Positions 6,306 to 47,587 of a stretch of DNA of 64,000 bases are shown piece after piece. The stretch is from Rhizophagus irregularis (Eukaryota), in contig NC_089435.1 of assembly GCF_026210795.1 (NCBI RefSeq), positions 124,001 to 188,000 on the forward strand, read 5' to 3'. The position numbers and the translations under genes were made by a program. Every line of letters starts with the position of its first letter. The stretch's first letter is position 1. The notes beneath the pieces are model-generated. The model was not told the origin of the DNA. It saw nothing but the letters and a program-made list of their open reading frames with translations, and ran no database searches.

Positions 6306-7409
6306 AAATTAAAAAAATTAAGCAGTACCAAGGAAAATTCGCAAACTTTTCTTGTCATTGTTTAATTTATCGATCATGCTTTCAACTATACAGTTAAAAA
6401 GTTAAACTGTTAAAGTTGAGCGGTATCTTAACAATCGTAATTATCGGACTTAGAACTTTTTAATCATATTTCTGATCAAATTATGCACATTTGTGGTTAT
6501 TGTATAGATTATTGTATAGGACTATAGGCTATTTACCGTCTTTTTCCGGGTTAATTAAATCTATAATGTAAGAACAAAATTATTGGCTGATCAGTGTTGA
6601 TTACCACGTGAAAATTAGCCAATAGATGATTGCAGATCATTTGTTTTTGTAACGTGAATAATATAAGTTTGAAAAATACAAACTCTTTCTTTTATTTTGT
6701 TTTTACTTTTTTAGTTATTATTATCTCAGATATTACATTTATTTGTTTCTTTTTATCATTGCTTTTTTACTCAAGTTATTATTATTTCAGATATTACATT
6801 TATTTGTTTTATTTTTATTATTTAAGAAGAATTGTGAAGTTATAATAGTTTTTTATATTGGTTAACTTTCAGTTATTACTAATTATTTATTTTGACTTCT
6901 TGAACTTTTCTAATATAGACATGTTTATATACTTAATAAAGTAGGTACAGTCATTTATTTTCTTTTCTTTTTTTTGTCTTTATTTATCCTTTTCTTTTAT
7001 TACTACTAGTTTTGTCTTCTTTTAATCATTACTAATTTTATTTTACTAATTTTATCTTTTTATTACTACTAATTGTATCTCCTTTTTATTGCTACTAATT
7101 TTATCTCTACTAATCTAATCTTTAATAATTTCATTCTTTTGTTACTACTAATTCATTTTTAATTACTACTAACTACATCTTTTTATTACTACTAATTTCA
7201 TCTTTTATTAATTTTTTATTACTACTAATTTTATTTTTTTATCTTTTTTATCACTATTAAAATTGTACCTTCTAACTTTTCTATATCTGATTATAGTATT
7301 TTTAATTTAATAATAAAATTTAATAATTATAATGACAAATTTTCATGTTAAATATATAAATATATAAATATATATTATATATAAAAATACCGTAGTAATA
7401 ATACATACG

Positions 7410-8125
7410 TTGTACACTGAGACATAATACTGTTCGCAAATAACCACCAGTGTAAAACATACGTTATTCGCAAATAACAACAAGTATAAAACATACGTTA
7501 TAAGCTGAGGTATAATACTGTTCGCAAATAATAACAAGTATAAAACATACGCTATAAACTGAGGCATCATGCTGTTCGCAAATAACAACAAGTATAAAAC
7601 GTACGTTATAAACTGAGGCATAATACTGTTCGCAAATAACCACCAGTGTAAAACATACGCTATAAACTGAGGCATCATGCTGTTCGCAAATAACAACAAG
7701 TATAAAACGTACGTTATAAACTGAGACATAATACTGTTCGCAAATAACCATCATGCTGTTCGTAAATAACCACCAGTATAAAACATACGTTATAAGCTGA
7801 GGTATAATACTGTTCGCAAATAATAACAAGTATAAAACATACGCTATAAACTGAGGCATCATGCTGTTCGCAAATAACAACAAGTATAAAATGTACGTTA
7901 TAAACTGAGGCATAATACTGTTCGCAAATAACCACCAGTGTAAAACATACGCTATAAACTGAGGCATCATGCTGTTCGCAAATAACCACCAGTATAAAAC
8001 ATACGTTATAAGCTGAGGTATAATACTGTTCGCAAATAACAACAAGTATAAAACGTACGTTATAAACTGGAATACCATGCTGTTCGCAAATAATCACATA
8101 CGTTATAAACTGAGATATAATACTG
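7410..8125. repeat. 54-bp minisatellite (~12 copies), probably subterminal in a CCCTA-ended element whose right TIR ends at 8310
   Basis: Unit is TATAAACTGAGGCATCATGCTGTTCGCAAATAACAACAAGTATAAAACGTACGT. TTTTTATAGGG at 8300-8310 matches the CCCTATAAAAA terminus at 22381 and abuts the broken end of the CACTA transposase. Confidence 0.85.
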
Positions 8126-21093: not shown

Positions 21094-22380
21094 AGGTGCG
21101 TTCCAGATATACATGGCCTGGTAATTCAGTATTTTCGTATAAATACATAATTCATAATCCTGGTAATTAATTACCAGATTATTTGAAAAATACGTAAATA
21201 CATAATTATTTACGTATAACGTAAATATTTATATATAACGTAATTAAATTAATATAAATTATATATATAATTAATAGATAATATAGTGTGAAATTATTTT
21301 GATCAACTTCCAAATTAATAAAACTATCTAAACCATAAATAGTAATTTATTTATCAAGTAAAAAAACTATAAAAAGAAATCATTCATTTTTTTTTTAACA
21401 TTTAAAAAAAGAATTTATAATTTTTTCGCGTTATAATATATTTCTTTTAAATCTTCTTAAGATATTTTAAATATGGATAACAGTAATGATAATCAAATAC
21501 AATTATTAATCAAAATAAAAAAAAACGTGGTCATCCAAAAACTGATATTTGGGATTATTTTAAGGAAGGGCCAAGAAATAGAGGGCATTGTTCAGCAGAA
21601 TGTAATTTTTGTGGTTGGAAATAACAAGTAGGTCAGCCTATTGAAATGCAAGGACATATTGCTTTAAATTGTTTAAAGGTATCACCTGAAGTAAAGTCTT
21701 TATTCCTGGAAAAAGTAAAAAATAATGGACATCTCGGTTATAATAAAAAAATTAAAATTAGCCACAATCAGCCAAAAATAGATGAGATATTTGATTCAAT
21801 CAAAATTGATCAAGCTAAAATTGAAATGGCAAATCGTGCTATTGTAAAATTTTTTGCTTGCTGCGGTATCCCTTTTCATATAATTGAAAACCCTTTTTTT
21901 ATTGACCTTCTTCGTACATCTCTTACAGAAGATATGCTTAATGCAGAAATCTCACATGTTATTACTGAAATAAATCTTAAATTAAATAATGAAAAAAATC
22001 TTACATTGGATACGTAATAATAATTTATTATAATATATAATAAATTAAATTATTAATTGTAATTTCTTAATTTTTAAAGGAGTAGATAGTTGGACGAGTA
22101 CTAGTAGACAATCACTTTATGCATTTGTTATTATTACTGGTGAAAGAAAAGAATATATTCATTCAGTTCAAAATTTATCAAACTATTCACACACGGGAGA
22201 GTTTTTAGCAAATAAAATAATTGAGGTAATTGAAAATGTTGGAGTTACAAAATTTGCAGGAATAGTATCAGATAATGCGTCTACAATGGTCATGGTAAAA
22301 CAGTTAGTTAACGATCGATATGGATTTATAATGCCAATTCGGTGCATTGTACATCATATAAATCTATTAACCAATGATAT

Positions 22381-23603
22381 CCCTATAAAAAGTATTATAC
22401 TTAAAATATACTTAAAATATATTATGAAATAGATTATAAGTATATTTTAAGTATATTACTAAAAATATATCTATAATATACTTAAATTTTAATTTAAATA
22501 TAATTTACAGAGGGCGATCAGAATTATCCGGCCACTTTTCAAGTTGAAATAATTTATATATATATAATATAGCAATAATAAAAATTTAAGTTAAACAAAT
22601 TCATTATGTCTTTGTTTACTAATTCAGATAAAATTTTAATAATAAATTCTATCTCCATTTGCAAAAATAACTCCCCAATTCACAGAGATATGCTATTGAT
22701 AGATTTTTTATAATATTCTGGAGTAATACCTTTCAATGCAACTTTAACATAGTACTTTTCAAGTGGTTTTATCAGAAAATTTAATAAGGTATGCAAGCAT
22801 AATGTTGAAAAAGTATTATGCCATTATATTACATATTAATTACAGGTATTATGCAAATGTAATACTATGTAAATTATAAATTTTTCAAGTTTGCGAAATT
22901 TGCGAATTTTAAAATTTAAAATTGTATGTTAAGGTTATTTTGAGATCTAGTGATTGAAATTTTGAAATTTTGGGTTCATCAGATTCGTCTCATTGAGAGA
23001 ATTTGAATGGTAATAATTTAATGTTTGTAGGATCGATATTCATCACATGATTACGCTCTAAAAGCATAAATGTCATCTACGATATTTTCTGATCCTGTGA
23101 TTGAAATTTTCCGATTTATAGCTCTTTTGATCCGTCTCATTGAGACGATTCGAATGGTGGTAAGCACAGGTCGATCAGATCGATATTGGCGAAATTATGA
23201 TGTTTTTAATATTTTTAAGTTTGTTTACACAAAATTGTAAAATTTATAAAATTCATACTATAGGGTGACTTCATACTTTCGAAAAATATGAAGCATTGGA
23301 ATTTGTTTATTGTGATTATAAATACAAAATTATATCTTATTTATATTACATTAACACATCATGATCAACAAAATTTTAGCAAAATAAACTGGCCGAATAA
23401 TTTTGATCGCCCTCTGTAAGTATATTTTAAGTATTTGGGCAAAAATTAAATATATTAGAAATATATTTTAAGATAATTTTAAATACATTTTAAGTATATT
23501 ATAAGTATTTCGCAATTTTTAAATTAACTATATTTTAAGTATATTTTAAATATATTTTAAAAAGTTTTTAATTATATTTTAAATATAAATACTTTTTATA
23601 GGA
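22381..23603. mobile_element. Non-autonomous CCCTA-ended (CACTA/CMC-like) element inserted in the hAT transposase
   Basis: Ends CCCTATAAAAAGTATT...AATACTTTTTATAGGA with 3-bp TSD TAT. Removing it restores the reading frame LTNDICKLE. Confidence 0.85.
22508..23416. mobile_element. Tc1/mariner-type MITE nested in the CCCTA element
   Basis: TIRs CAGAGGGCGATCARAATTATYCGGCCA flanked by TA on both sides. Confidence 0.9.
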
Positions 23604-25380
23604 TATTTGTAAATTAGAGTTTGCCCAATCAATATTAAAAAAATGTATGAAATTAGTTCATTTTTTTAAAGCATCTCATCGGGCAGGTGCAGAATTAACA
23701 GATGAAATAAAGGAAAATATAATTAAAGGTGGTAAATTAAAGGGGTATTGTCAAACGAGATGGATGACTGCATGTGATTGTGTATCTTCAGTTTTAAGAT
23801 GTGAAGAAGCTCTAAAAAATGTTGGTATTTATTGATTATTTTTAATTATTTATTTTTAATTAATTTTAATGAATTTATTTAATTTTAGATAGCAAATAAT
23901 AACCTGAATTACCTAAAGCAAAATATCAAAGAAATTATTACGAGGCATTTTTTTATGGATATTGAAGAATTACAATTAATTCTTAAGCCAATAAAAGAAG
24001 CCATCAAATATTTAGAAATGAAAAATGCAACGTTAGCAGATTGTTTCTTATAATTAATAAAATTGTTATATTCAATCAAAAGCTTATCAGAAACTCATAC
24101 TACTTTTTGACAACAATGCATTAAAGCATTTAATAAAAGGTGGATGCAGTTCAATTTTAGGTTATATATGTTAGCCTATTTACTTCATCCACTATACCGT
24201 GGTACGTATTTGATAAAATAAAATGATGATTTTTTACTTATTTAACAATTAATTAATTATTAATTAATTAAAATATCATAGGTAAAGGATTCTGAAATCA
24301 AGTATGCCGTAAAGTAGTTTATTGGGCAATTGAAAATATATAGATAAAAATGGGAGGTATAAAAAATTCCAGTTCCAAATTAATTGGGCAAATTGCTGCT
24401 TTTCGTGATAATCTTCCTCCTTATAATGATGAATTTGTTCCTAAATATTATACAGTTGAACATTAGTGGAGTTATGTAGAACAAGATGAAGGAGAAGAAA
24501 ATTTTATCCAACAACTTGCATTAAAAATATTTTCAATAACTCCACACAATGCAAGATGTGAGAGAATATTTTCTGTGATGGGTTGGTATATGAATAAAAG
24601 GAGAACTCGGTAAATATTTATTTTATTGTTGCTAGTTATTAATTTTTTTTTGAATTTTAAATTTTAAGTAATTCCTTTCAATTAGATTAAGTGTGAATCA
24701 TTTACAAAATCTTACGAAACTTCACACATATTATGTTTCAAATGCGAAAACTGAATTAAAGTATACGGCTAGAGATATGAATGTCAAAAATGATGAAGAG
24801 TTTATCAATTGGTAAGAAATGGTATATATCAAAATATTAATGATGAAATACGAGAGGAAGAATTAGATAATGAAGACGAAGATTATGGTGATACAGAAGA
24901 AGAACTTGTTAACATAGAAGAGTATGAAAAATTTGGGCATAAAAGTAACGATAGTGTTTTACAAAGTGAAAACTATTTTAATTTTGTATCAAAGGAGCTA
25001 GTGGAATTATTAAAACTTCAGGAGCCACGAGTAGTTATTAAACCCGTAAATGTTGATCATATTGTTGACCACGGTAATGAAAATTTCGATATAGAGAAAT
25101 TATTAGACCAACAATTTAGTGTCATATTCATTTGTTGTATATTTTGATTTGTTTTATTTCTTTCAAAATTTTGAATAAAAGCTTCTAACAATTTTGCGTT
25201 TTAACATAAAGAATTTCTTCTTAATTTATTTTAAAGACAATAATTTAATACATTATTTCATTTAATTTATTTTTAACAATTTTGTATATGTTTAACAGTT
25301 TTATTTAATGCTTAACGATATAGATTAATAATATTTAATGATCTAATTTAACAATCTACTTTAATAATGCTTAAGATTTT

Positions 25381-26858
25381 CAGAAACTGAAATCTACAAA
25401 AAATAAAAAGAAAGAAACGTACGTTTCTTCAAAGTAAATTTCAAAAAAATCTGCCCCCATACACGTACTTGTGTTCTAAGAAACTGAATCTACAAAAAAT
25501 AAGAAACGTTAGTACGTTTCTTCAAAGTAAATTTCAAAAGAACCCGCCCCTATACACGTTGAGATCCCCCAATTCCCTCTGTCATCAATTTACAGAGTTG
25601 CCACATCGAATGGGCATTCCCATGGTCGAACGAACGAATAATCGAACGAACGAACAATTAAACGAACAAGCAAATAATCAACGACATGATTAACAAACAA
25701 CATAATCAACAAACAACATTTAACAACAATGTACAACAACATTCTTGGTTCATAACATAAATAGCGTTAGTAATATAAAACGTCAAACGATATAAAATAA
25801 AATTTAACTTCTCTAAATTTTCCCCAAATTATATCCACTTTTACCTTTAATTTCAAACTTCGATAGCTCTCGCTACGAATTATTACTTTTCGTAAGCGTA
25901 TATTTAATTCATCTTAAATTTCCATTTTATTCAATTAAAATTAATTAAGCGAACATTAATTAAAGTTTAGGGCGAACCTATTACCTTTAATTAATATTAT
26001 ACTTCATTAACAAATAATTAAATTTAACTTATATTTTTATTGAGTTCTGTGGATGAGAACTATGGAATTACCTTGAATTCCGCTCTCTATTTATACAAAT
26101 TTTATGCTACTTTCTATTCTATCTATATACTATCTTTTATATTCTTTTTACATATTATCTTTGAATTATCTTTCTAATATGCTATCTATATTTTAAATAC
26201 GCTATCTTTTAATATGCTATCTTTTTATATATGTTCTTTTTAATATGTTACCTTTTATATTCCATCTTTATACTATCTTTTTATATTATCTTTTATATTA
26301 TTTTATGTTCTTTAATCTTTCTGACATTATTTTATATGTTCTTTTAATTCGCTTTATGTGTTTTGCTTATAATCTATCTTTTGTGGCTTATAATTATTCT
26401 TTCTAATTGTTCTTATTGCTAAAGATTGCTAAACCGCAATTGATCGACTCTAATTATTCTATTGGTTCTTTGTCAATCATTTGATAAATATTACATCATG
26501 TAGATCATTACTCTTCCTAAATGTTTATCCTTTTCGGCTAATTATTTATCCATCTACGCCAATTCATAATCAATTTGTTCGTTCTTAATATTTGGCAATT
26601 ACATTTGGTGGTTGAATTTTATCATCTTTTCGTGCTTGATATTCGGCCGTTTACAACGTACCCGCATTTCTTCAAAATAAATTTTAAAAGAACCCACCCC
26701 TATACACGTACCCGTGTTCTTAGAAACTGACATCTACAAAAAAAATAAAAAGAAAGAAACGTTAGATGTTTCTTCAAAGTAAATTTCGAAAGAACCTGCC
26801 CCTATATATGTACCTGTATTATAAGAAACCGAAATCTACAAAAATAAAAAAGAAAGAA
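25381..26858 (-). repeat. Tandem array of ~95-100-bp intron + micro-exon units (splice signals on the minus strand), split by a solo LTR
   Basis: The minus-strand unit reads GTACGT...TACTAAC/TCTAAC...pyrimidine tract...TAG followed by a 21-22-nt exon. Example introns: 25394-25468 and 26734-26813. Confidence 0.8.
25560..26655 (-). mobile_element. Solo LTR of Gypsy family A
   Basis: TG...CA ends, collinear with 3273-4343, 4-bp TSD ACGT. Removing it restores the array unit TATACACGTACCCG. Confidence 0.92.
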
Positions 26859-29035
26859 TTTTTCTTCTTTTAACATCTTCTCTAGTGAATCTATTAATTA
26901 ATTTGCTTTTTAAATTTCTATCATCATTATGGTCACACCAATTTACTAAATTAGCTGCTACTCTTTCTTTTTCTTCATTATACCATTGTAATGCGATTCC
27001 TAAATATGTTATTGCTACATTTGCTTTATTTTGTCTACATATACCTCCTCCAATATTTCCTTCTGTTCTTCCACTTACCATAAATGCTACTTCAAATTGT
27101 CTAATCCAATCGTTAACATCTTTATCTTCTTTTCCACTAAAAGTTGGCATACCTACTATTCCTCCCATTGCTGCAGTTTGAATTTTATCTGTTAGAGTTT
27201 GTCCTACTTCTAATGCATTATCTAATGCATTAGGTGCGAGTCCTATAGCATTTTCTACTATTCTTCTCATTTGTGCTTCTGTTGCCATGTTTAATAATAT
27301 ATTTTCTTGAAATAAATCTTGTAAATTATAATCAGATATTTTACTTTCGTTATATGAATCTTCAATATTCAATGAATTATTCGACTCTGAATTTTGACTT
27401 AAACCAAAACCTTCTGTATTTATAACATTTTCATTTTCGCTCTCAAATTCATTCTCATTAAAACTTTTAATATTTTCTTCTCAAATCTCATGTTCTTCTG
27501 GATCTAATATTTCTCCAATCTTTTCTGAATCATCTGTATCATCATTTTCTTTTTCAACTTCTTCTTCACTTTCTTCAATTTCAAATTTCTTTAAATATTC
27601 GTCTAATATTCTCCTTATTTCTTTTTCTGATTCATTTTTATATTCTTGAAATTTTCTTATAAAGTCTGCACTTAATATATCAACATCTCTATATCCCATA
27701 CTTATTAATCTTAATAATTCTCCATCAAAAACTTCAATTTCTAAAATTTTGATTAGATTTTTTAACTGTTCTAATCTTTTCTCTATTTCTGTTTCATCAT
27801 CTAATTCATTCTCATCTTTTACATTTTCTAATTCTTTTTCATAACAACTTTTACATATTCTTTCTATAAATTCTTTATTATATTCTACCGCTTTTATTGC
27901 TTCTTTCTTTAATATTATTTTGTTACACATTGGACATTCTATTGTATACATATAATGCCATATTCTTAACTCTTCTTCTATTTCTTTGTCATCTAATTCT
28001 TCAATAGTTTTGTAAAATTTCATAAATTCTTTAGTTTTTATTATTTCATATTCTACTTTAAAATTTATTATTTGTCTTATTTCTTCAATATCAATTTTAC
28101 AACCATTTTTTAACCAATAATTTCTGTATATTCTTTCTATATGTTCGTCTCCTTCATTTGAATTTGATTCTTCCACATTATCTGAACTTTCTAGTTCTCC
28201 TATGTCACTTTGTTCTTCAACAAAACCTTTTGTTTCTACAATTTTCTCTATTATCTTATCTGTTAAATCATCGTTCATCCATGGTTTTGAATATTTATTT
28301 CTATCCCACCATTGATATGTTATACTTTTCTGAAACTTCTTGATTTTCTCTCTATTTTCTTCTTTTGCAATATTTTCTTCTAAATGTAATATTTCTTTAA
28401 AATTTCTCATAGTACCATATCCTTTATTCTTAATAGTTACTGATTCTATTTCTTCTAACCATTCTTCAAATTTTGCAAATCTTATATCTAATTCATTATC
28501 TTCTATGATATATCTATATGTTAACAATTCTTTATTCCCTAATAAGTTCTCCTCTGTTTAATCATCTAATATGAACTCATCATCTTCACTAAGTATATAA
28601 TGTTCACTTATCACTTTTACTACCGATATAATTCCTATTTTTCTATAATCTGATTTATTTCTATACCTAATTGACCTTACAACTATATCACTACTATATC
28701 TAACAGTTTTTCTCCTTCTTTTCTCATTTTCTCAAATTCTTTATTTCTTTTCTTTTTACTAGATGGATAACTTTCTTCTCCATCCTTTCTTGTCAATATT
28801 ATATATTCCATTAATTTTGTATATGTGTTTCTATTATAACTCATTCCTTCTAATATTACCTTTTGAAAAATTTTCCAAAATCTTTTAAACTAATCTCCTA
28901 TTTCTATTTCATCAGTACTATAACATTTTAGACATGAAGGGTCCACTTGATATTCTTTTCTTAATTCATTATGTTTCTCTATTTCATGTCTATTCTTAAT
29001 CTCTTCTAATTTATCATATATATCAGATATTTTTA

Positions 29036-29398
29036 CACAGGTCGAAATTAGTTAAATAGGGTATCAATAGGTTATCAATAGGTTATCAATCGGCTATCAA
29101 TAGGCTACCCTATTGGTAGCCTATTGAACTTGCGCCATAATCCGTCACCAATCGGGCAGGCTGATTGATAACCTATTGATAACCTATTAATACCTTATTG
29201 ATAACCAATTTGATAAAAATACCAATAGGATACTAATAGGTTATCAATAAGTTATTAATTGGCTAACAATCAGCCTGCCCGATTGGTGACGAATTATGGC
29301 GCAAGTTCAATAGGCTACCAATAGGGTAGCCTATTGATAGCCGATTGATAACCTATTGATAACCTATTGATACCCTATTTAACTAATTTCGACTTGTG
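29036..29398. mobile_element. 363-bp palindromic CACA-ended (CACTA/CMC-type) MITE
   Basis: Ends CACAGGTCGAAATTAG...CTAATTTCGACTTGTG with 3-bp TSD TTA. Nearly the whole element is self-complementary, with TCAATAGG repeats. Confidence 0.9.
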
Positions 29399-29466
29399 TT
29401 ATTTATTTAAACATTTCATAATTTCACTTTTATTTATATTTTATAAAATTTTATCATTAACTTAAC

Positions 29467-30786
29467 AGGACCCTGGAAAATACTTATATAGGTAAGGTCC
29501 CAAAAATATTTTTTATTAGTAGCTCTAAGCATAGGTTTTTACTATGATCGCTAAGCATTGTTGATATCTAACCTTAAAAATTATATAAAAATAAGCAAAT
29601 CAATCTTCTAACCTAATTAAATTTTTATTATAACACATATAATTTATAAAATATATTTATTAATTAATATATTTTATTAAATCCAATTTTAAATATGTTG
29701 TGAAGCTAAACTAAACATAATATACAAGTAGATTAACAATATTCAATTAATAAAGTTAATAAACAGTAAAAGAAAAATTCGAAATTAATACTATTACAAA
29801 AAATGTAAATTTCTCCATAAGTATTATACTTACACCCATAAAAATTAATATGTAGGTAGTTTCAACCTTGCTGAACAATTTTTAATTAATTTAGAAAGTC
29901 GATTTCATTTGACCAAAGAGGTGTAATTACGCTCTGAAGTTGTAAACGGAGAAATGAAAAATTCGGAAGTTAGTACCGTTATGAAAAATGCACTTTTCTC
30001 CATAAGTATTATACCCACACTCATGAAAATTAATATATAAGTAGTTTCGACCTTGCTGAACAACTTTCAATTAATTTAGAAAGTCGATTTCATTTGACTG
30101 AAGTAATGTAATTACGCTCTGAAGTTGTAAACGAAAAAGTGAAAAATTTAAAAGTTATTACTGTTAAAAAAATATGCTTTTCTATATAAATATCATACTT
30201 AGCCTTATGAAAATTAAAATACAAGTAGATTTAACTTGCTGAACAAACTTACTTAAGCATAAAAGATAATTTGATATAACCAAAGTGGTAAGTATTGAAA
30301 TTATATTTAAAGTAAAACATATTTATAGTAATTTTACTATTTAACAAAATAAACATGTATAATATAGTAATTTTATATTAAAAATAATACACTGGGTTTA
30401 ATAAAAATTAAAAAGATACTATTAACAGATAATTAATAAAACATTGAAAAAAAAAATGAAATTTCATCAAAAAAAAATTTTTGTTTATGTATTTATATAA
30501 AATTGTGAAATGTAGTACAAAATTAACACTCACCGTTAGTGAAAATAAAATAAAAATTAATTATAAATTCAATATATAATATTTTAAAAAGTTATATAAA
30601 TATGAAAAATAAGCAACTAAAAACTCTTAGTATTTTAAAATAATACCAAAAATATGCAATTTAATTATCTTACATAGTATAAAATTTTCTTAAAATTAAG
30701 CATTATAAAATTCTTACATCATAAAACTTTACTATGTTGGCTAAGCACCTTGGTACCTTACATATATAAGCATTTTCCGGGGTCCT
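29467..30786. mobile_element. 1.32-kb non-autonomous TIR element (AGGACCC ends), copy 1
   Basis: TIR AGGACCCYGGAAAATRCTTATAT with perfect 8-bp TSD AACTTAAC and ~185-bp internal tandem repeats. An inverted second copy lies at 42069-43539. Confidence 0.9.
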
Positions 30787-32955
30787 AACTTAACATCATT
30801 TAAATTACTATTTTATCTTTTACTTCTTTAAAATACAATTTAAATTCTAATATTTTCAAAGTTCCAGCTTTGATTTTATAATTTCTCTATACATTCTATA
30901 ATATAATCTATAATCGCGATTTTATTTATAAACTTTCTATATCTTGCGCAAATAAACTGTGATCAAGGCTAGGGATTATTTATAACTGGGGCCGCCCAGT
31001 GTCAGACTAATATGATCACCAACAAAGGCTTATTTATACTGGGTCCTCCCAGTGTGCTCTTATTTATACTGTGTAATAACCGAAAATATGATAATATAGA
31101 ATAAGGATAAATAATTAGCCAATGGGTAAATAATTAGCCAATAAAATTATATTTATAGTTTAGTGTAATGAGATAGACACATGATAATAGATCTTCAAAT
31201 TTTATTAGAAATATTAGAAATATTAGAAATATTTTTCTTAAAAATGTATAAATACAAGTGGATTTCGATAGGAAATTCAGCAGTTCAATTTTTGGAAAAA
31301 TAAAATTTTTAGTTCACCCTTAATAAAAACTAACACATTCTTTTTGCCTTTTTCTTATGAGTAAAAAGTGCCACATTAATTATATTTTTAATTAATGGTT
31401 TATTAATGTTTTGTAACTAATTTTTATTTTAAACCAAGCATAAATACTATACGAACTCAACACGTCGGTGGCAACATACGATATTTTATTTAATATCCTA
31501 TGGGCGGCATGTCACATTTTTGGTGCATGCTCGCAAGAAAGTAAAAGATTGTTGTCTTCATACAAGATCTAAATGAGAAATAAAAGAAAAGTATATAAGA
31601 AAATGAAAGAAAATTTGTGAAATATAAGAAAGGAAGGATGATATGAGAAATCATCAAAGAAGTAATAGATAAGGAAGACTTATCTGAAATATGAGAAAAG
31701 TGTTACTATATATGAAAAAGGATATAGTAAAAAAAAATATATAAGAAAATTAAAATATTATTGAATGATATATGAGAAATAAGAAAAAGTAATATTATGA
31801 AAAAGGAATATTACGGAATATATGAGAAATGAAAATATACGATATATTGAAAAAGTATATATCGAAAAGATGAATGAAATATTCAAGATAATAATAAAAA
31901 GATTTAAAAATTAAACGAAAATAAAAATTTATAATGAGAATGAATTTTGTGAATAATAAGAAGTTAATAAATGATTGAAAAATTTGAAAAGTATTATAAG
32001 AAAAGAAAAGTTATTAGTGACAAACCCGTAAATTACTATACTTCTATGAAGAAGGTAAAGGCAAGCCCGGTATAGGTTACTAAATGAAAGAGAAAATTAA
32101 ATGATATTATAAATATAAGAAATATCAAAATGTTGTTATTTGATATATGAAAAATAAAAGAATAATATGAAAGATTGTAAAAGATAATAATGAATTATAT
32201 GAAATAAAATGATGTAGTAAAAGAAATTGCGTAAACATGTTGCGTAAAATAAATAAAATGTTGTACAAATCACGTGAGTAATGTAAATCACGTGATGAAG
32301 TGCAGTAAATAAAAGAAATAAGAGAAAGTATAAGTCACGTGATAAGGCGTAGTAAAAGAAATATATAGCTGCCCCTTGGGCAGGGGCGACTGATTAATAA
32401 AAATATAAATGAATAAGAAAATAATAGAAGAAATAGTTGTGTCACCAGGGGCGTTTGTCAACAGAAATTTTAGTACGTTGATCGCTTAAAAATCCGTGGC
32501 TATCCAATTATAATAAGAAAATATTAATGAATTATAAAATGAAATACGAAAAATAAAAATAATATAAAATAGATCTGAAATAAATATTTTGGAAGTTAAT
32601 ATAAGAAAAAGATTAAAAGTTATTAAAAAGTTTAATTTTGTGTATAGAACTGGGAGGACCCAGTATAAATAAGCCTTTGTTGGTGATCATATTAGTCTGA
32701 CACTGGGTGGCCCAGTTATAAATAATCCCTAGCCTTGATCACAGTTTATTTGCGCAAGATATAGAAAGTTTATAAATAAAATCGCGATTATAAATTATAT
32801 TATAGAACGTATAGAGAAATTATAAAATCAAAGCTGGAACTTTGAAAATATTAGAATTTAAATTGTATTATAAAGAAGTAAAAGATAAAATAGTAATGAT
32901 AAATTTTATAAAATATAAATAAAAGTGAAATTATGAAATGTTTAAATAAATAAAA

Positions 32956-35900
32956 ATGTCTGATATATATGATGAATTAGAAGAGATTAAAAGAAGACAT
33001 GAAATAGAGAAACATAATGAATTAAAAGAAGAATATCAAGTAGACCCTTCATGTTTAAAATGTTATAGTACTGATGAAATAGAAATAGGAGATTGGTTTA
33101 AAAGATTTTGGAAAATTTTTCAAAAAGTAATACTAGAAGCAATGAGTTATAATAGAAACACATATACAAAATTAATGGAATATATAATATCGACAAGAAA
33201 GGATGGAGAAGAAAGTTATCCATTTAGTAAGAAGAAAAGAAATAAAGAATTTGAGAAAATAAGAAAAGAAGGAGAAAAACTGTTAGATATAGTCGTAAGG
33301 TCAATTAGGTATAGAAATAAATCAGACTATAGAAAAATAGGAATTATATCGGTAATAAAAGTGATATGTGAACATTATATACTTAGTGAAGATAATGAGT
33401 TCATATTAGATGATCAAACAGAAGAGAATTTGTTAGGGAATAAAGAATTGTTGACGTATAGATATATTATAGAAGATGATGAATTAAATATAAGATTTGC
33501 AAAATTTGAAGAATGGTTAGAAGAAATAGAATCAGTAACTATTAAGAATAAAGGATATGGTACTATGAGAAATTTTAAAGAAATATTACATTTAGAAGAA
33601 AATATTGCAGAAGAAGAAAATAGAGAGAAAATCAAGAAGTTTCAGAAAAGTATAACATATCAATGGTGGGATGGAAATAAATATCCAAAACCATGGATGA
33701 ACGATGATTTAACAGATAAGATAATAGAGAAAATTGTAGAAACAAAAGGTTTTGTTGAAGAACAGAGTGACGTAGGAGAACTAGAAAGTTCAGATGATTT
33801 AGGAGAATCAAGTTCAAATGAAGGAGATGAACATATAGAAAGAATATACAGAAATTATTGGTTAGAAAACGGTTATGAAATTGATGTTAAAGAAATAAGA
33901 CGAATAATAAATTTCGGAGTGGAACATGAAATAATGAAAACTAAGGATTTTATAGAGAGCTATATGAAAATTAAGGAATTAGATGATGAAGAAATAATTG
34001 GAGAACTTAGAAGATGGTATACTATGAATGCCACAGAATGTCCGTTGTGTAACAAAATGATACTGAAGAAAGAAGCAGTAAAATATAATAAAGAATTTAC
34101 AGGAGAAATATGTAAAAGTTGTTCTGAGAGAGAAGAGAATGATGTTAGTGAAACAGAATTAAGAGTAAAAAGAATACAGAAAATATGTGAAGGAGCAGAA
34201 GTTGAAGTAACGGAAGGAGAAATATTACGAATGATAAATATGAGTTATACAGATGGAGAAATCTTAAATTGGAAGTTTATAAAGTTATTCCAAGAAAATA
34301 AGAATGAATTGGAAGGAGTCATAAAAGAAATATTAGATAAATATTTAGAAGAACAAATAGAGACAGAGGGAAACAATGAAAAAGAAGAGGATACAAATGA
34401 TTCAGAAAAGATTGGAGAAATATTAGATCCAGAAGAATGTGAGATTTGGGAAGGAAATTCTGAAGACTTTAATGAAAATGAAGTCAAAAATAATAATGAA
34501 AATATTATAAATACAGGAGGTTTTGGTTTAAGTCAAAATTCAGATTCGAATAATTCATTGAATATTAAGGATTCTGATATTGAAGGTTCTGATAGTGAAA
34601 GTGAAGTATCTGATTATAATTTACAAGATTTATTTCAAGAGAATATATTGTTAGATATGGCAAATCAAGATCAAATAAAGAGAATAGTGGAAAATGCTAT
34701 AGGACTCGCACCTAATACATTAGATAATGCATTAGGAGCAGGACAAACTTTAATAGATAGAATTCAAACTGCAGGAATAGGAGGAATAGTAGGTATGCCA
34801 ACTTTTAGTGGAAAAGAAGATGAAGATGTTAACGATTGGATTAGACAATTTGAAGTAGCGTTTACAGTAAGTGGAAGAACGGAAAGAAATATTGGAGGAG
34901 GTATATGTAGTCAAAATAAAGCAAATGTAGCAATAACATGTTTAAGAGGAATTGCATTACAATGGTATAATGAAGAAAAAAAAAGAGTAGCAGCTAATTT
35001 AGTAAACTGGTGTGATCATAACGATGATAGAAATTTGAAAAATAAATTAATTGATAGATTCACTAGGGAAGATGTCAAAAGAAGAAAAATGATAGAATTG
35101 ACAAGGATTAAACAAGAAAAAAATGAAAGTGTTGAAGAATATAATAGAAGATTTAAGTCAATAGTAAGAATTGCAACTAGAGGTATGACACGTATCAAGT
35201 AAATTATTATATCCAAGGATTAGAACCTACATTGGGGTACCAAGTTAGAAGAAGTAGTCCAACGAATTTAAATGACGCAATTAATATAGCAAGAAGAGAA
35301 GAAAAAGCTAAAAATGAATTGATAATGAAAACAACGGGTGTAAATATAGAACAAATAAGACAAGAAAAGAATATAGAAGAAATTTTAAAAGAAGAAATGA
35401 ATAAAAAAGAAGAAAATGAAATATATAAAAAAATGCAAAAGCCAGTTAATGAAAAAGATATTGATGAATTAAGTAAAGCGTTAGAACAATTTAGAGCAGA
35501 AAAAATAGCTATGGAAGAAACGTTAAATGAAATAAAAAATCAACAAAGAAGAAATATAAATAGAAATACAAATACAAGAAATGCAAGAAAATAAGATGTT
35601 ATGAATGCAATGAAGTAGGTCATATAAAACCAGAATGTCCACAATTAAGACAAAGAAATAATTATAGAACGCAAAATAATTTTTATAGGAATAATAATGA
35701 AAGAAGAAATAATAATGGTAATAGAAATATAAATTTAATGGATCACGAAAGATATTATGATAATGGTAATTATTATAATAATTACGAAATATATAATTAT
35801 GAAAAAGAAATATTTCCAACTTTAAGAAGTGGTAGAAAATATGGAAGAGATTTAGATAATGACTATAATGAAATGGAAATTGAAGATGTTCCAATACCAC

Positions 35901-36232
35901 CAAAAAGAGAATATGATATGAAAATGGATATTAATGGTGAAAAAAAAGAAAGATTTTCTAATAAAGAAGATAGAGATAAAGCATATCAACCAAGAAGAAG
36001 ACATAACCAATGTAAAAGATGTGGATTAAGAGGTCATTTTATAAAAGAATGTCCAAATCCAGGAATGAAAAGAGGAAATAAAAATATTAGAGTACGAGTT
36101 AATGTACCACCAGAAAAATATGTAATGGATATGTTTAATGAAAAAGCAAATATAACATATGGACAAATTTACAATGAAAATCCAAAATTTAGAAGAATAG
36201 CTAGAAATTATGATGAAGATGATAATGCATGA
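32956..36232 (+). pseudogene. gag: Gag polyprotein with ~570-aa N-terminal extension, capsid-like domain and two zinc knuckles (frameshifted)
   Basis: Capsid-like PTFSGKEDEDVNDWIRQFE and QEKNESVEEYNRRF, plus knuckles CYECNEVGHIKPEC and CKRCGLRGHFIKEC, spread over ORFs 32956-35202, 35232-35594 and 35738-36232. Confidence 0.85.
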
Positions 36233-36799
36233 CTACACTCGGACCAACAAATAAAAAGTGCAGATAATAAAAGTGAAACTAAAGCGATGAGAAGTAAAGT
36301 TATAATAAAAGGAAAATTAGTATCAATAATAATAGATTCAGGAGCATCAGTCAGTTTAATATCAGATAAATTAAGAAAAGAATTAAATATCCCAATAATA
36401 GAAAAGAGTGATATTAGATTTATAATGGCTAATGGAACAAGAGTTGCATCAAAAGGAAAAATAGAAATAACAATAGAAATAAATGAAAATACAGAAATGA
36501 AAATAATTATGGATGTAATTGAATCAGTAGAAAAAGAATTAATATTAGGAAATAATGTGTTAAGAGAAAAGAAAGGAATAATAGATTATAATGAAAAGAC
36601 ATTAATATTAAGAGAAGATGGAAAAGATATTGAAATACCAATAGAATATGAAAATAATGATGAAGATATTAATGATAATAATGATAGTAATGATAGTGAA
36701 GATGAAAATAGTGAAAATGAATATGAAGAAACAAGTGAACGAGAAATATATTTAATAAATAATGAGGAAAAAGGACATATTATAGAGGAAAACTATTAG
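36233..36799 (+). CDS. Retroviral-type aspartic protease, in frame with gag after a TGA
   Basis: Contains IIDSGASVSLIS and LILGNN. The frame is open from the gag stop (36230-36232) to TAG 36797-36799. Confidence 0.85.
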   Translation, partial: LHSDQQIKSADNKSETKAMRSKVIIKGKLVSIIIDSGASVSLISDKLRKELNIPIIEKSDIRFIMANGTRVASKGKIEITIEINENTEMKIIMDVIESVEKELILGNNVLREKKGIIDYNEKTLILREDGKDIEIPIEYENNDEDINDNNDSNDSEDENSENEYEETSEREIYLINNEEKGHIIEENY

Positions 36800-38294
36800 G
36801 TCTTGGCCATAATGATGGAGATACATTAAAGATGCACAAAGATTGGACAGACGAAATAAAATATAAAGATTTGGAGAAATTACAAGAGAAAGAATTAAAA
36901 GATTTAGTTAAAGAATATGAAGATATTTGTATATATGGAGATAAGAAAATAAGTAAAACAAATATAGTAAAATGCAATATAAGGTTAAAAGATGAAACGC
37001 CAATAAATCAAAAAGCATATAGAGAAAGTACAGAAAATAGAGAAATAATAAAAAGAAAAAAAGAAATAGATAAAATGTTAAAGGAAATAATAGAATAGAT
37101 AAAACGTTAAAAGAGGAAATAATACAAGAATCATGTAGTCCATGGTCATCACCAGTAGTAATAGTAAATAAGAAAACAGGAGATAAAAGATTTTGTATAG
37201 ATTTTAGAAAAATAAATCAAATGACGATAACAGACACATATCCTTTGCCAAGAATAAATGACTTATTAGAAAAATTTAGAGTAGCAAAATGGTTTACAAC
37301 AATTGATTTAGCAAGTGGATATTGGCAAATAGAGATGAAAGAGGAAGATAAAGAAAAGACAGCATTTATTTGTAGTCAAGGATTATATGAATTTAATGTT
37401 ATGCCATTTGGATTAAAAAATGCACCGGCAATATTTCAAAGAACAATGAATAAAATATTTAAAGAATACTTAGATAAATTTATGAATGTATACATAGATG
37501 ATATTATAATATATTCGAAAAATTGGAATGAACATTTACAACATATAAAAATAGTATTAGAAGAATTAAGAAAAGCGAATATGATGTTAAAGTTAAAGAA
37601 ATGTGAATGGGTGAAAAAGAATGTAGAATATTTGGGACATATAGTAGGAACAGATGGATTAAAACCAGATGATAAGAAAATAGAAAAGATTAAAAATTTA
37701 AAACCACCAAAGAATATCAAACAAATAAGAGAAATAAATGGATTATGTTCATATTATAGAAAATTTGTGAAAGGATATTCAAAAATAGTAAAACCAATAA
37801 TGGAATTAACGAGAAAGAATGTTCCTTTTGTGTGGACAGATAAACAACAAAAAGCATTAGAAGAGTTAAAAGAAAAATTAATAAATTATCCGATATTACA
37901 ACATCCAAATTTTGAAAAAGAATTTATATTAATAACAGATGCATCAGGAGAAGGATTAGGAGCTAAATTAGAACAATTAGATGAAAATAATAGAGAAATA
38001 GTTATTAGTTATGCGAGTAGAAGTTTAGTAAATGCAGAAAAGAGGTATCTAATAACAGAATTAGAATGTTTAGCAGTATTTTGGGGAATAAAATATTTTC
38101 ATAAATATTTATTTGGAAGAAAGTTTAAAGTAATAACAGACCATGCAGCATTAAAAGGATTTATAAGTACATCAAAAGTTCCTAAAGGAAGAAGAGGAAG
38201 ATGGATGATGGAATTACAACAATATGATTTTGAAATAATACATAAACCAAAAAAAGAAAATAAAAATGCTGATGCGATGTCAAGGTTAATATGA
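36787..38294 (+). pseudogene. pol: Reverse transcriptase - RNase H, broken by a local duplication near 37055-37115
   Basis: Motifs SPWSSPVVIV, RFCIDFRKIN, YPLPRI, DLASGYWQI, MPFGLKNAP, YIDD, TDASGEGLGA, ELECLAV, TDHAAL and ADAMSRL. Confidence 0.92.
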
Positions 38295-38490
38295 GAAAGA
38301 TAGAAGTTAAAAATAATAAATAGTAATAAATAACGAGATAAATAAAAATTAAAAATGGTTGAAAGGATAGGATTAGAAATATATGTATTCATAATTCATA
38401 CAAATATAAATTATCATTGCATATTATTTGAAGATAAAGAAATAAAATTTATTTTACCATTTGAAAACGAAATAGAAAATTTATTAACAA

Positions 38491-39703
38491 ATGGATGAAA
38501 AAGAATATGATAAAATTTTAAAGAATATAGAAAAAGAAGAAAAATACGTATAAGAAAATGGAGTTTTATATAAAATTAAAGATGAAAATAAGTTTAGAGT
38601 AATAAGAAGATTTGAATTAGAAGGAATAATGTATATGATGCATGATCATGAATTATCAGCACATTTTGGGATTCAAGCTACATATGAAAAAGTAAAAGAA
38701 AAATATTGGTGGAAAAATATGAAACGAGATGTAGAAAAATATGTAAAAAGTTGTGATAATTGTCAAAGAAGAAATAATCCACAAGGGTTACATGAATTAC
38801 ATCCAATAGAAGTAAAAGAACTTTTTCATATGATTGGAATAGATGTAATAGGACCATTACCAAGAACAGAAGAAGGAAATAAATATATAGTAGTAGCAAT
38901 AGATTTGGCCAGAAGCAAAAGCAATAAAAGAAGCAAATGCAAAAGAAATATCAAAATTTATTTATGAAGAGATAATTTGTCGACATGGATGTCCAAAGAA
39001 AATACTTACAGATAATGGATCAGAATTTAATAATCAATTAACTAAAAATCTTACAGAAAAATTTAATGTTCAACATAAATTCTCAACTCCTTATCACCCT
39101 AAAACAAATGGATTAATAGAACGATTTAATAAAACATTAATAGAATCATTAGCGAAATTAGTAAAAGAAAAATTAACGATATATAGAAATAGAGAATACA
39201 AAGATAAAAATTGGGATCAAAGAATAGCACCAATATTGTTTGCATATAGAAGTAAAATACAAAAATCAAGTAAAATGACACCATTTTATTTGACTTATGG
39301 AAGAAGAGTAATATTACCGAATGATGAAGAAGTTAAAGGAATTACAATGATTAAAAGAATAGAACATATAATAGAAGAATTACCAATAAAGAGATATGAA
39401 GCAAAGAAGAATATTGAAAAAGCACAAGAACAACAAAAGAAATATCATGACAAAATTGGAAAACGAAAACAAAACTTTCAAATAGGAGATAAAGTATTAT
39501 ATTTTGACGCAGCGAAATATAAAACACATACAGGAAAACTAGAAAAAAAATGGAAGGGACCATATTATATACATGAAGTAATAATAAATGGATCGTACAA
39601 AATTAAAGAATTAAATGGAAGAATTTTAAGAAGACCAGTAAATGGAGAATTATTAAAGGAATATTTTGATAGGGAAATATTTGAACCATATATAATAATA
39701 TAA
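38491..39703 (+). pseudogene. Gypsy integrase, apparently a separate ORF; broken
   Basis: H..H..C..C zinc finger (HDH..AHFG..CDNCQ), GIDVIGPLP, TDNGSEF, NGLIERFN and KLEKKWKGPY. ATG at 38491 follows the RNase H stop. Confidence 0.88.
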
Positions 39704-40239
39704 TATGTTTGAGACCCAAATTTGATTCTTAATTTATGGGATATAAATTTTTCAAGAGGAGGATAAATGTAATAACTGAAAATACGATAATATAGAATAA
39801 GGATAAATAATTAGCCAAAGGATAAATAATTAACCGATGGGTAAATAATTAGCCAATAAAATTATATTTATAGTTTAGTTTAGTGTAACAAGATAATCAT
39901 ATGATAATAGATCTTCAAATTTTATTAGAAAAAATAGAAGTATTAGAAATATTTTTTCTTAAAATGTATAAATACAAGTGGATTTCGATAGAAATTCTGC
40001 AGTTCAATTTTTTGGAAAATAAAAATTTTAGTTCGTCCTTAATAATAAACTAACACATTTTTTTAGCCTTTTTCTTATGAGTAAAAAGTGTCACATTAAT
40101 TATTTTTTTTTAATTAATAGTTTATTAATGTTTTATAACTAATTTTTATTTTAAACCAAGCATAGATGTTATACGAACTCAACACGTTGGTAGCAACATA
40201 CAATATTTTATTTTAATATCCTATGGGTAGCGTGTCATA

Positions 40240-41499
40240 GCGGAATATTTGTGGAATTGCTGAATAGTTGCGAATTTGTGGAATATCTGCAAAAAAAACT
40301 AATTTTTTTTTTAATGAAATATAATTTTTTAATTTAACTACTAAAAAATATATTTCCTTTTATTATTAAAAATTGAAACGCCAGAACCAATAGTTCTGGC
40401 ATTTTTAATAAAAAAAGTCAAAAAAAATGCCAGAACCTATAGTTCCAGTAAAAACGTCAAGACTTATAGTTCTGGCATTTTTATATAAAAAAATTTAAAA
40501 AAAATGCTGAAACCTATTGTCCTGGTGTTTTTATATAAAAAATAATTTAAAAAATGCTAGAACTCATAGTTCCAGTGTTTTTACATGAAAAAAATTAAAA
40601 AAAAATCAAAAGAAAATACCAGAACTATAGTTTTGGCGTTTTTATGTAAAAAAAATCAAAAGAAAATGCTGGAACTATAGTTCCGGCGTTTTTATGTAAA
40701 AAAAATCAAAAGAAAACGCTAGAACTATAGTTCTGGCATTTTTATGTAAAAAAAAATTAAAGAAAATGCCGGAAATGGTTCTGGCATTTTTATATAAAAA
40801 AATCAAAAGAAAATACCAGAACCATAGTACCGACATTTTTATGTGAAAAAAATTAAAAGAAAACACCAGAACTATAGCTAGTTCCAACATTTTTATGTGA
40901 AAAAAATCAAAAGAAAATGCCGGAACTATAATTCCAGCATTTTTATGTAAAAAAATCAAAAGAAAATGCCAGAACCATAGTTCTGGCATTTTTATGTAAA
41001 AAAATCAAAAGAAAACGTTAAAACCATAGGGGCCTCCAGCGTTTTTACGTAAAATCTTAAAAGAAAACGCCGGAACCATAGTACCGGCATTTTTATGTGA
41101 AAAAAATCAAAAGAAAATGCTGGAATCATAGTACCGGCATTTTTATGTAAAAAATCAAAAGAAAACATCAGAACCATAATTCCAGCGTTTTTATGTAAAA
41201 AAAATTAAAAGAAAATGCCAGAACCATAGTACTGGTGTTTTTATGTAGCTGGAATTCATAGTTCTGGCATTTTTATGTAAAAAAAAATCAAAAGAAAATG
41301 CCAGAACCTATAGTTCCGGCATTTTTATGTAAAAAAAAATTAAAAGAAAACGCCAGAACCCATAGTTCTGGCATTTTTATAAATGTACGAAACTGACAGT
41401 TATAGGCAGCAATTAGAATTGCAGAATTGTGAGCTACTAACCACAATTCAACTCCAAATTCTGCAATATTGCAGAATTTAAAAATTATTTGCGGACCTA
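40240..41499. mobile_element. hAT-like non-autonomous element with ~49-bp palindromic tandem array; left end removed at the Gypsy 3' LTR
   Basis: About 20 units of AAAAGAAAATGCCAGAACCATAGTTCTGGCATTTTTATGTAAAAAAATC (40370-41380). The right end ...TTTGCGGACCTA (YAG-type) has GCAGAATT/GCGGAAT subterminal motifs. Confidence 0.7.
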
Positions 41500-42068
41500 T
41501 CCTTACTTGTGGGATGTATTTTTGTATATTAAAGCATCAGGATTCTTAATCTAAAGGAAGTGTTCTTCTGACTGTACTTTCTTTCATCCAATTTTGTAAT
41601 ATCTGTAAAAGCCATGAGGTGAATGATATGCTGACAGTTGTAATTCTTACTTGCAATAACAGGTTTTGGAATTCCAGTTTTCCTCTTCCATTTTCATACA
41701 TTAATGGAGATCTCAGGATTGAAGTCTTCAATCTTGCTAAATATACGTAGACAAACAGGAGTGGGTATGAGAATGGCATTGAGATTGACTTGTTCCAAGT
41801 ATGGCTCAAATTTTTCTGCCCGAAAGATTTGCTCAAGTTTTTGTGTATATCCATCTTTATATGCAAAGTAAGCACCTAAAGCCCCTTGCAAACATTTTTC
41901 AGAGGTAAGTCTATATCTGGATTTATGAGATATTTGTTATCCGGATTAATAGTACACTTCTTATTTGCAAGTGCCTTGGGTGTGAGAATGTATGAGCCTC
42001 CTTCTGCTCAATGGTAAGTACACGTCTCAATATTTAATACATCTATACTAACAATTTTCCAACCAGAC

Positions 42069-43539
42069 AGGACCCCGGAAAATGCTTATATATGTAAGGT
42101 ACCAAGGTGCTTAGCCAACATAGAAAAATTTTATGATGTAAGAATTTTATAATGCTTAATTTTAAGAAAATTTTATACTATGTAAGATAATTAAATTGCA
42201 TATTTTTGGTATTATTTTAAAGAGTAAATTTATTCATCGCACGTGCGATGCATCGCCACTTTCCTTTTTTGTAAATTATTTATGTTGATCAACCTGCTTA
42301 TACATCGCCACCCCCCTTAAAATGGCAATGATAAACATAAAAATTTGCATCGCACGTGCGATAAATAAATTATTTCTATTTTAAAATACTAAGAGTTTCT
42401 AGTTGCTTATTTTTCATATTTATAGAACTTTTTAAATTATTATATATTGAATTTATAATTAATTTTTATTTATTTTCACTAACGGTAAGTGTTAATTTTG
42501 TACTATATTTCACGATTTTATATAAATATATAAACAAAAATTTTTTTTGATGGAATTTCAGTTTTTTTTTTTAATTATCTTTCAATAGTATCTTTTTAAT
42601 TTTTATTAAACTCAGTGTATTATTTTTAATATAAAATTACTATATTATACATGTTTATTTTGTTAAATAAAATTACTGTAAATATGTTTTACTTTAAAAT
42701 ATAATTTCACTACTTACCACTTTGGTTATATCAAATTATCTTTTATGCTTAAGTAAGGTTATTCAGCAAGTTAAATCTACTTGTATTTTAATTTTCATAA
42801 GGCTAAGTATGATATTTATATAGAAAAGCATATTTTTTTTAATGGTAATAACTTTTAAATTTTTCACTTTTTTGTTTATAACTTCAGAGCGTAATTACAC
42901 CACTTCAGTCAAATGAAATCGACTTTCTAAATTAATTGAAAGTTGTTCAACAAGGTCGAAACTACTTATATATTAATTTTTATGAGTGTGGGTATAATAC
43001 TTATGTAGAAAAGTGCATTTTTCATAACGGTACTAACTTCTGAATTTTTCATTTATCCGTTTACAACTTCAGAGCGTAATTACACCCCTTTGGTCAAATG
43101 AAATCGACTTTCTAAATTAATTGAAAATTGTTCAGTAAGGTCGAAACTACCTACATATTAATTTTTATGGGTGTAAGTATAATACTTATGGAGAAATTTA
43201 CATTTTTTGTAATAGTATTAATTTCGAATTTTTCTCTTACTATTTATTAACTTTATTAATTGAATATTATTAATCTACTTGTATATTATGTTTAGTTTAG
43301 CTTCACAACATATTTAAAATTGGATTTAATAAAATATATTAATTAATAAATATATTTTATAAATTATATGTGTTATAATAAAAATTTAATTAGGTTAGAA
43401 GATTGATTTGCTTATTTTTATATAATTTTTAAGGTTAGATATCAACAATGCTTAGCGATCATAGTAAAAACCTGTGCTTAGAGCTACTAATAAAAAATAT
43501 TTTTGGGACCTTACCTATATAAGTATTTTCTGGGGTCCT
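42069..43539. mobile_element. AGGACCC-ended TIR element, copy 2 (inverted relative to 29467-30786)
   Basis: Same TIR, TSD AACCAGAC / AATCAGAC (one mismatch), collinear in reverse with copy 1. Confidence 0.9.
42222..42376. mobile_element. 155-bp MULE-type MITE nested in copy 2
   Basis: TIRs contain ATCGCACGTGCGAT and there is a 9-bp TSD TATTTTAAA. Copy 1 has the empty site near 30635. Confidence 0.88.
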
Positions 43540-46825: not shown

Positions 46826-47587
46826 CTGTAGTATAAAAGAAACGTCAATAACGTTTCTTAAAGTTAATTTTGAATAAACACCCCTATTACAATTTACTCA
46901 AGATCTTCAAGACTATTTAAAAAGAAAGAAGAAAAAAAATATTAATATCATTCCTAGAGAAAAAAACAAAAAAAAGAATTTACTCACCATTTCAAAGTCA
47001 AAGGCTAAAATCCAGTCCAAGAAGGTCGTCCCTAAAGAGGAAGAAGAAAAAGAACGTTAATATCGTTCCTGAAGTAAAAAAAAAATAAAAAAATAATTTG
47101 CTTACCATTTCAAAGTTCAAGGCCAACATCCATTCCAAGAAGGTCGTCCCTAAAGAGTAAGAAGAAAAAAAGCGTTAATATTATCGTTCCTGTGAGTAAA
47201 AAACAAAAAAAAATAATTTACTCACCATTTCGTGCAAGGCTAAAATCCATTCCAAGAAGGTCGTCTCTAAAGAGGAAGAAGAAAAAGAACGTTAATATCA
47301 TTCCTGAAGTAAAAAAAAAACAAAACAAAAATAATTCGTTTACCATTTCAAAGTTCAAGGCCAAAATCCAGTCCAAGAAGGTCGCCCCTAAAGAGAAAGA
47401 AGAAAAGAAACGTTAATATTATCTTTCCCGGAGTAAAAAAAAACAAAAAAAAAATAATTCACTTACTATTTTAAAGTTCAAGGCCGAAATTCAGTCTAAA
47501 AAGACCGAAAATATAAAAAAAAGTTTCAGAATATTAAAAAAAAAATAGATGATCAATCCAAACAAATCTATAAAATAAGCTGCATAC
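46826..47587 (-). repeat. Tandem ~119-bp intron + mini-exon array inside the 3' part of the Sola element, antisense to the transposase
   Basis: Minus-strand introns 47388-47466 (GTAAGT), 47267-47343 (GTAAAC), 47150-47225 (GTGAGT), 47032-47105 (GTAAGC), 46913-46987 (GTGAGT) and 46826-46897 (GTAAAT). Each has a TTAAC/TTAAT/TTGAC branch motif, a pyrimidine tract and YAG. Exons are 44, 41, 44, 44 and 15 nt. Confidence 0.8.

Follow-up and report, generated by a model that had tools for sequence, protein, structure and literature searches.

The repeat array at 25394–26858 is a broken copy of a real, lineage-restricted transposon cassette. It is probably the remnant of a tandem series of introns and micro-exons that is carried on several unrelated DNA transposons in Rhizophagus and likely relatives. 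The window analysed (64,000 nt of Rhizophagus irregularis, contig NC_089435.1, positions 124,001 to 188,000, forward strand) has 29% GC and is dense in decayed elements; Pfam identifies in it a CACTA-like Transposase_21, two hAT types, a Ty3 retrotransposon, and a DUF7869 gene. The array units carry the signals expected of U2 spliceosomal introns: a GT donor, a YTRAY branch point, a pyrimidine tract, and YAG, spaced as in an intron. The features of the array and of the elements beside it are as follows (positions in the window):

21496..25147, plus strand: decayed hAT transposase gene with DUF659 and hAT dimerisation domains (Pfam, three-frame translation, and tblastn of P0001, P0004, and P0006)
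24610..24685, plus strand: ordinary sense intron of the hAT transposase, skipped in a polyA RNA contig of run X7 (sibling copy; positive control)
25148..25393, minus strand: putative last exon of the cassette, directed toward the 3' end of the transposase and following the acceptor TAG at 25394; RNA depth at most 4
25394..25468, minus strand: intron-like unit 1 (75 nt), with GTACGT donor, hairpin minus the branch loop, pyrimidine tract, and TAG
25469..25489, minus strand: micro-exon, 21 nt
25490..25559, minus strand: body of intron-like unit 2, with TACTAAC in a 9-bp hairpin and TAG; its donor lies across the LTR at 26656–26661
25560..26655, minus strand: solo LTR (TG...CA), foreign to the cassette, 89.5% identical to 3273–4343 over 1106 columns
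26662..26711, minus strand: truncated unit, donor and 5' half only
26712..26733, minus strand: micro-exon, 22 nt
26734..26813, minus strand: intron-like unit 3 (80 nt), with GTACAT donor, TCTAAC in a hairpin, and TAG
26814..26835, minus strand: micro-exon, 22 nt
26836..26858, minus strand: acceptor remnant, up to the rearrangement junction with Ty3 gag
26858..29035, minus strand: inverted duplicate of the Ty3 gag region, 85.8% identical to 32951–35090 (Retrotrans_gag on the other copy)
46826..46897, minus strand: hairpin-branch intron homologous to the hAT unit, ~90 bp past the end of the DUF7869 transposase match
46918..47503, minus strand: related array of 118-bp units adjoining the DUF7869 transposase, four units of which are matched by a metagenome-only profile

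The anatomy proposed in an earlier note, minus-strand introns at 25394–25468 and 26734–26813 with exons of 21–22 nt, is confirmed from the sequence, as is the claim that one unit lacks the branch motif: the branch loop is deleted from unit 1. The GTACGT donor that the note gave to these introns is present in the first, but the donor at 26813 reads GTACAT. The units of the tandem array described for 25381..26858 are real, but there are only ~4.5 of them, and 1,096 of the 1,478 bp belong to the solo LTR, which landed in a unit donor with a 4-bp ACGT duplication. A feature missed at that first reading is that the branch point lies within a 9-bp inverted repeat (at the loop and 3' arm); this combination of hairpin and branch motif occurs four times in the window and not once in 100 shuffles. 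At 26858, the pyrimidine tract is fused to the inverted Ty3 gag duplicate. The window copy of the cassette, broken by the LTR and the rearrangement, is probably dead. Its predicted exon chain contains 3, 6, and 5 stops in the three frames, with a longest open stretch of 26 codons. A Rfam search of 25150–26900 gave no match at E ≤ 1, and in eight metagenome loci (described below) Rfam gave only sub-threshold miRNA matches, on a foldback that lies beyond the L054 array; a known structured RNA family or an intronic snoRNA host was rejected for lack of an Rfam match.

The hAT transposase gene beside the array contains several in-frame stops and frameshifts, as well as a MITE-like insertion with inverted arms (~22377–23606). 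Its pieces are 97–100% identical to P0004 (deposited for R. irregularis) in three of four aligned blocks, and 92–97% identical to P0001, a more intact sibling. The stop at 25145–25147 coincides with the C-terminus of P0004, and the gap of 234 bp from there to the array agrees with the ~230 bp reported previously. No right TIR was found for the window copy, again in keeping with the earlier reading, and no partner was found for a candidate left end at 21091. The right TIR is likely missing because the inverted Ty3 gag duplicate cuts the array at 26858, a rearrangement that likely removed the remainder of the array together with the right end of the hAT.

Nested inverted duplications occur within 26858–43539 of the window (26858–29035 vs. 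32951–35090, Ty3 gag; 29467–30642 vs. 42377–43539), a foldback element occupies 29035–29399, and a gene for a putative restriction-endonuclease fold of the Uma2 type lies amid transposons at 51763–52935. Palindromic tandem arrays that lack splice motifs are found at 5540–6294 and 40376–41400 (units of 82 bp and 50 bp, respectively). A 54-bp tandem array (~7400–8100) lies downstream of, and in sense to, the CACTA-like Transposase_21 gene; on the minus strand, its unit consists of GTATGT...CAG (33 nt) and a further 21 nt, and has no hairpin. This array does not match the cassette profile and was rejected as a member.

The earlier observation that the same architecture adjoins two different transposase types is borne out, and is strengthened to homology. 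The intron at 46826–46897 aligns to the hAT unit with a score of 64 (shuffles: mean 25, maximum 46 in 1000), compared with 34–40 in the same alignment for three ordinary transposase introns with approximate boundaries. A profile constructed from metagenome units only matches three hAT units, the intron at 46826–46897, and four units of the 118-bp array (E 5e-4 to 0.04, three of them at E ≤ 0.015); the reversed window, used as a control, has no match at E ≤ 0.01. On the basis of the alignment score and the profile matches, the hAT array and the DUF7869 array share an origin. The profile also matches a hairpin-branch-like stretch on the minus strand within the hAT coding region (24019–24060; E 6e-4), which has neither tract nor acceptor. 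The DUF7869 gene and its array are surrounded by a 26-bp inverted pair. For the DUF7869 protein, a confident model is predicted (pLDDT 84), with weak matches to RNase H-like/DDE folds, none at E ≤ 0.001; the transposase, which the note placed in a Sola element, may be of that type, the searches themselves giving DUF7869 only. Two DUF7869 proteins that are 57–59% identical to the fungal one (P0030 and P0031) are deposited under the name of an archaeal MAG, likely as a result of bin contamination, and no DUF7869 relatives were found in the viral contigs searched.

A scan of metagenomes returned 34 loci, of which 22 are AT-rich (24–36% GC) multi-unit arrays with 2–16 units each; these collapse to 14 distinct loci. 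The other 12 matches were dropped as non-arrays (at most one palindrome each, 35–47% GC). The composition of the arrays, a hAT 44% identical to P0001, and look-alikes in Mucoromycota suggest that they belong to Glomeromycotina. A stricter related pattern gave four single matches and no arrays in prokaryote genomes, and no matches in viral contigs; other scans of viral contigs gave 20 chance matches and 10 phage-like matches without arrays. Profile counts within the metagenome loci are left out as evidence, since the same loci supplied the units for the profile and the counts are circular; the window matches and the reversed-window control are independent. In nine of the 14 loci, no gene could be recognised beside the array, and the arrays of L043 are divergent. 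In six of 64 loci, a conserved 10-nt motif and, after it, a TATA-like stretch stand ahead of the first unit (L032:501, L033:544, L037:1281, L043:1940, L049:253, and L052:1310); the motif is absent from the window, and is a candidate for either a promoter or an element end.

Across the metagenome loci and the window, YTRAY lies upstream of 91 of 111 acceptor-like sites. The accompanying strand asymmetry of acceptors (111 vs. 0) is uninformative because it is built into their definition, and is not counted as evidence. With the hairpin as a strand-neutral anchor, the first AG is a YAG, 7–36 nt on, in all 16 hairpins that have a pyrimidine tract (shuffle mean 7.8, maximum 15; 1000 shuffles), and YTRAY is present in 14 of the 16, compared with one of 16 on the opposite strand. 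Of 60 units, 38 have a donor that scores at least 4 out of 5, compared with 20% in shuffles. Intron lengths run from 64 to 144 nt and exon lengths mostly from 22 to 58 nt, with no frame bias among the exons (lengths modulo 3 of 19/19/15; n = 53). Protein-coding micro-exon genes have frame-symmetric exons that form an ORF; this identity was rejected for the cassette, given the lack of exon frame bias and the stops in all three frames.

A stem of at least 6 bp surrounds 49 of the 91 branch sites, compared with 10.5% in shuffles and two of 15 ordinary introns with YTRAY (four more control introns had no YTRAY, and some are only roughly bounded). The branch consensus CTAAC is found at 40 of the 91 sites, ACTA is the commonest loop (25 of 73 units), and the variable loop always ends in YTR; in the predicted stem, the branch adenosine is paired. 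The hairpin arms show compensatory change, with 19 two-sided Watson–Crick changes in 48 distinct arm pairs against 8.3 ± 2.4 expected from shuffles (0 of 2000 reach 19), as well as 70 one-sided and 5 two-sided breaks. These shuffle statistics overstate independence, because the units are related by descent. Whole-intron folding of three hAT units is no better than shuffles (z 0.31, −0.64, and −1.17). Some subfamilies appear to pair the donor too, which would put both splice signals in hairpins: 12 donors are followed by a complementary arm of 6–15 bp (L042, L043, L044, and L047).

The cassette might be a neutral by-product, in which one ancestral exon–intron unit of a transposon UTR was amplified in tandem and shuffled between nested elements. 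Recent descent and homogenisation would then have kept the splice signals, and template switching at the DNA level the palindrome. Consistent with this, the elements of the window are nested, decayed, and rearranged, the units of any one array are homogenised, a good many hairpin arms are broken, and no spliced product was seen. Furthermore, double CpG changes (70 units: 12 compensatory, 0 CA/CA or TG/TG, and 4 other) restore the perfect palindrome and never leave a wobble form, and palindrome repair at the DNA level could explain the missing TG/TG wobble doubles as well as RNA selection does. However, exons, 5' intron halves, and loop length (3–11 nt) diverge across the 14 loci while the branch motif, YAG, and donor persist, and the cassette is retained in a gene-less element that consists of subterminal inverted repeats and the array only (L037). 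We regard a neutral origin as unlikely.

Two metagenome elements place the array inside transposon ends. L050 is a hAT bounded by perfect TIRs of 15 bp (203–217/4078–4092, at a contig end); at least five array introns, in units of 100–150 bp, are found in the stretch from its left TIR to the ATG of the transposase (1443), in the sense orientation. L031/L038 is a 6.35-kb hAT with 20-bp TIRs (L031 112–131/6446–6465), flanked by a target duplication that matches at 7 of 8 positions; it has an array of two units downstream of the gene, in sense, and inside the right TIR. Between transposase and array, this hAT carries a further gene, which is Myb/SANT-like (L038:4078–4600). Arrays are thus located inside the TIRs of hAT relatives from other genomes, as the earlier note had proposed to check; membership of the array in the hAT element, which it left unproven, holds for these relatives, whereas no partner was found for the candidate left end of the window copy.

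In five gene-linked cases, the array is downstream of, and convergent or antisense to, the gene: the window hAT, the window DUF7869 element, L051 (a DUF6589-like gene, with the last full acceptor ~300 bp from the stop), L036 (an ORF whose look-alikes are only unnamed Mucoromycota proteins, and which is not counted as a transposon gene), and L029 (an ORF stub that runs into the array). The array reads toward the gene in six of the seven gene-linked cases. As a rule, however, the "downstream and antisense" placement first described for the array fails: a transposase is proven at only two of the metagenome loci (L050 and L031, the TIR-bounded hATs), and both carry the array in sense, that of L050 upstream of the ATG. 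A pure antisense model is insufficient for the same reason.

The subterminal repeats of hAT and CACTA elements are short binding motifs at both ends, between TIR and gene. The cassette arrays likewise lie between TIR and gene, near element ends in L050 and L031, and are palindromic; they might accordingly be DNA-level subterminal repeats, with palindromes as protein-binding or cruciform sites and an incidental likeness to introns. We consider this very improbable, in that the same motif adjoins hAT, DUF7869, and DUF6589-like genes, the branch motif and YAG are strand-specific, and the ordinary subterminal repeats of L050, at both its ends, are distinct from the intron units, which are at one end only.

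Of the 24 listed RNA runs, four were aligned, on 24400–25620 only (the left half of the array). The polyA contig from X7 skips the sense transposase intron 24610–24685, which means that joints are detectable and that the hAT family is transcribed. The polyA runs X17 and X18 yield 268 and 252 reads, respectively, mostly from sibling arrays, with a peak depth of ~170 on the hairpin; only 2 and 4 of these reads are ≥99% alike, the window copy being barely represented. Many of the reads span intron–exon–intron unspliced, and the listed joints return across units with exon letters between. Thus, the spliced reads that the earlier note had called for were not seen in this region: among the 15 of 19 joints listed, none skips an array intron, and reads of 22-nt exons alone cannot be aligned. 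Mates are strand-balanced in both X17 and X18, and DNA carry-over or A-tract capture is a possible source of the array reads. X20 yields 13 reads, none on the array. In X17 and X18, unspliced reads also run 5–7 deep across the sense intron (24564–24727), with almost none on the upstream exon; these could represent antisense RNA, A-tract capture, or DNA.

The reading that we favour, tentatively and at somewhat less than even confidence, is that the cassette feeds host silencing and so limits its own element. The cassette, near a transposon end, would be transcribed by Pol II into non-coding RNA, likely from an upstream promoter, and would engage the spliceosome; the hairpin would hold the branch point, and slow splicing is predicted from the pairing of the branch adenosine within the stem. 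A sequestered branch point is known to inhibit splicing (PMC2275289), and in Cryptococcus RNAi is directed to transposons by way of stalled spliceosomes (reviewed in PMC6232588). Read-through antisense RNA or stalled spliceosomes may then lead to host small-RNA silencing, by which the element would be kept quiet and self-limiting. R. irregularis expresses DCL, AGO, and HEN1, and has AGO-loaded 24-nt small RNAs that derive from TEs; of the small-RNA loci outside TEs, 41% are in unannotated regions (PMC8647823).

The opposite effect can also be envisaged, whereby a well-spliced stack of introns mimics a host gene and either raises transposase expression or shields the element from silencing. The introns of L050, in sense ahead of the ATG, would suit such a role, as would the near-consensus branch and donor motifs and the loop ending in YTR, which leaves the 5' portion of the branch motif exposed; in C. 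elegans, intron sequences protect against silencing by piRNAs (PMC6232588). We judge this to be rather unlikely: the five downstream arrays read against their genes, the array reads seen are unspliced, and the branch adenosine is paired, as is the donor in the 12 cases noted for some subfamilies. Alternatively, the RNA might stay unspliced and act as a splicing-factor scaffold, its tandem UACUAAC loops binding the branch-point protein in the way that Gomafu/MIAT binds SF1 (PMC3116199). The unspliced array reads and the prevalence of tandem TACTAAC, the commonest loop, fit this proposal, yet a pure decoy needs none of the donors, pyrimidine tracts, acceptors, and intron-sized spacing that are kept, and we deem it improbable. 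For Gomafu/MIAT, tandem consensus branch motifs are likewise found in a non-coding RNA, but the repeats are exonic (PMC3116199), whereas each cassette motif belongs to a full intron-like unit carried by a transposon.

Silencing by the cassette would work most like the spliced, TE-antisense lncRNAs of Blumeria hordei, which are also fungal, TE-derived, and non-coding, have splice sites on the antisense strand, and are proposed RNAi precursors (PMC10648671). Antisense orientation applies to the window hAT and four other gene-linked cases, but not to L050 and L031, which are in sense. The Blumeria lncRNAs have a mean of 2.3 exons, with <1.9% having more than five, and the available part of that text describes no shared tandem unit (PMC10648671); the cassette, unlike them, amplifies one homologous hairpin-branch unit up to 16 or more times, is common to several DNA-transposon types, and is sometimes in sense. 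Splicing has been validated for the Blumeria lncRNAs (PMC10648671), whereas the cassette introns are predicted from sequence. Poorly spliced transposon introns are likewise a route to RNAi in Cryptococcus neoformans, where they are incidental introns of transposon mRNAs (PMC6232588); the cassette is a dedicated non-coding stack for which stalling is predicted.

Introners insert singly at new sites in coding genes, with terminal inverted repeats. Introners, introner-like elements, and sister stwintrons are, like the cassette units, families of similar and structured fungal introns (PMC8469720). The cassette differs in that each intron is duplicated along with its exon, in head-to-tail order. 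An introner identity was rejected because exons are homologous between units and between arrays and the hairpin is internal. Literature searches, with most subscription journals outside their coverage, returned no description of the cassette, and neither did term searches of the accessible text of R. irregularis genome and TE papers (PMC8647823, PMC10234402, and PMC11075540), the supplementary TE libraries of which may include such arrays unannotated.

The motif provides a handle on unclassified repeats, which comprise two-thirds of the TEs (PMC11075540), and the arrays may account for spurious multi-exon gene models in such genomes. It is possible, although doubtful, that AM-fungal DNA transposons of several superfamilies exchange a dedicated RNA-processing cassette in which hairpin-gated branch points act as a switch, signalling to the spliceosome and RNAi machinery of the host to silence or to spare the element; such a cassette would represent a new class of transposon accessory module built purely of splice signals. 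How a host discriminates transposon RNA from its own is an open question, and the kinetics of splicing have been proposed as one cue. Unrelated transposons that share a homologous and tunable series of hairpin-gated introns would constitute a natural experiment on that cue, and the small-RNA, methylation, and long-read data with which to test it already exist for R. irregularis.
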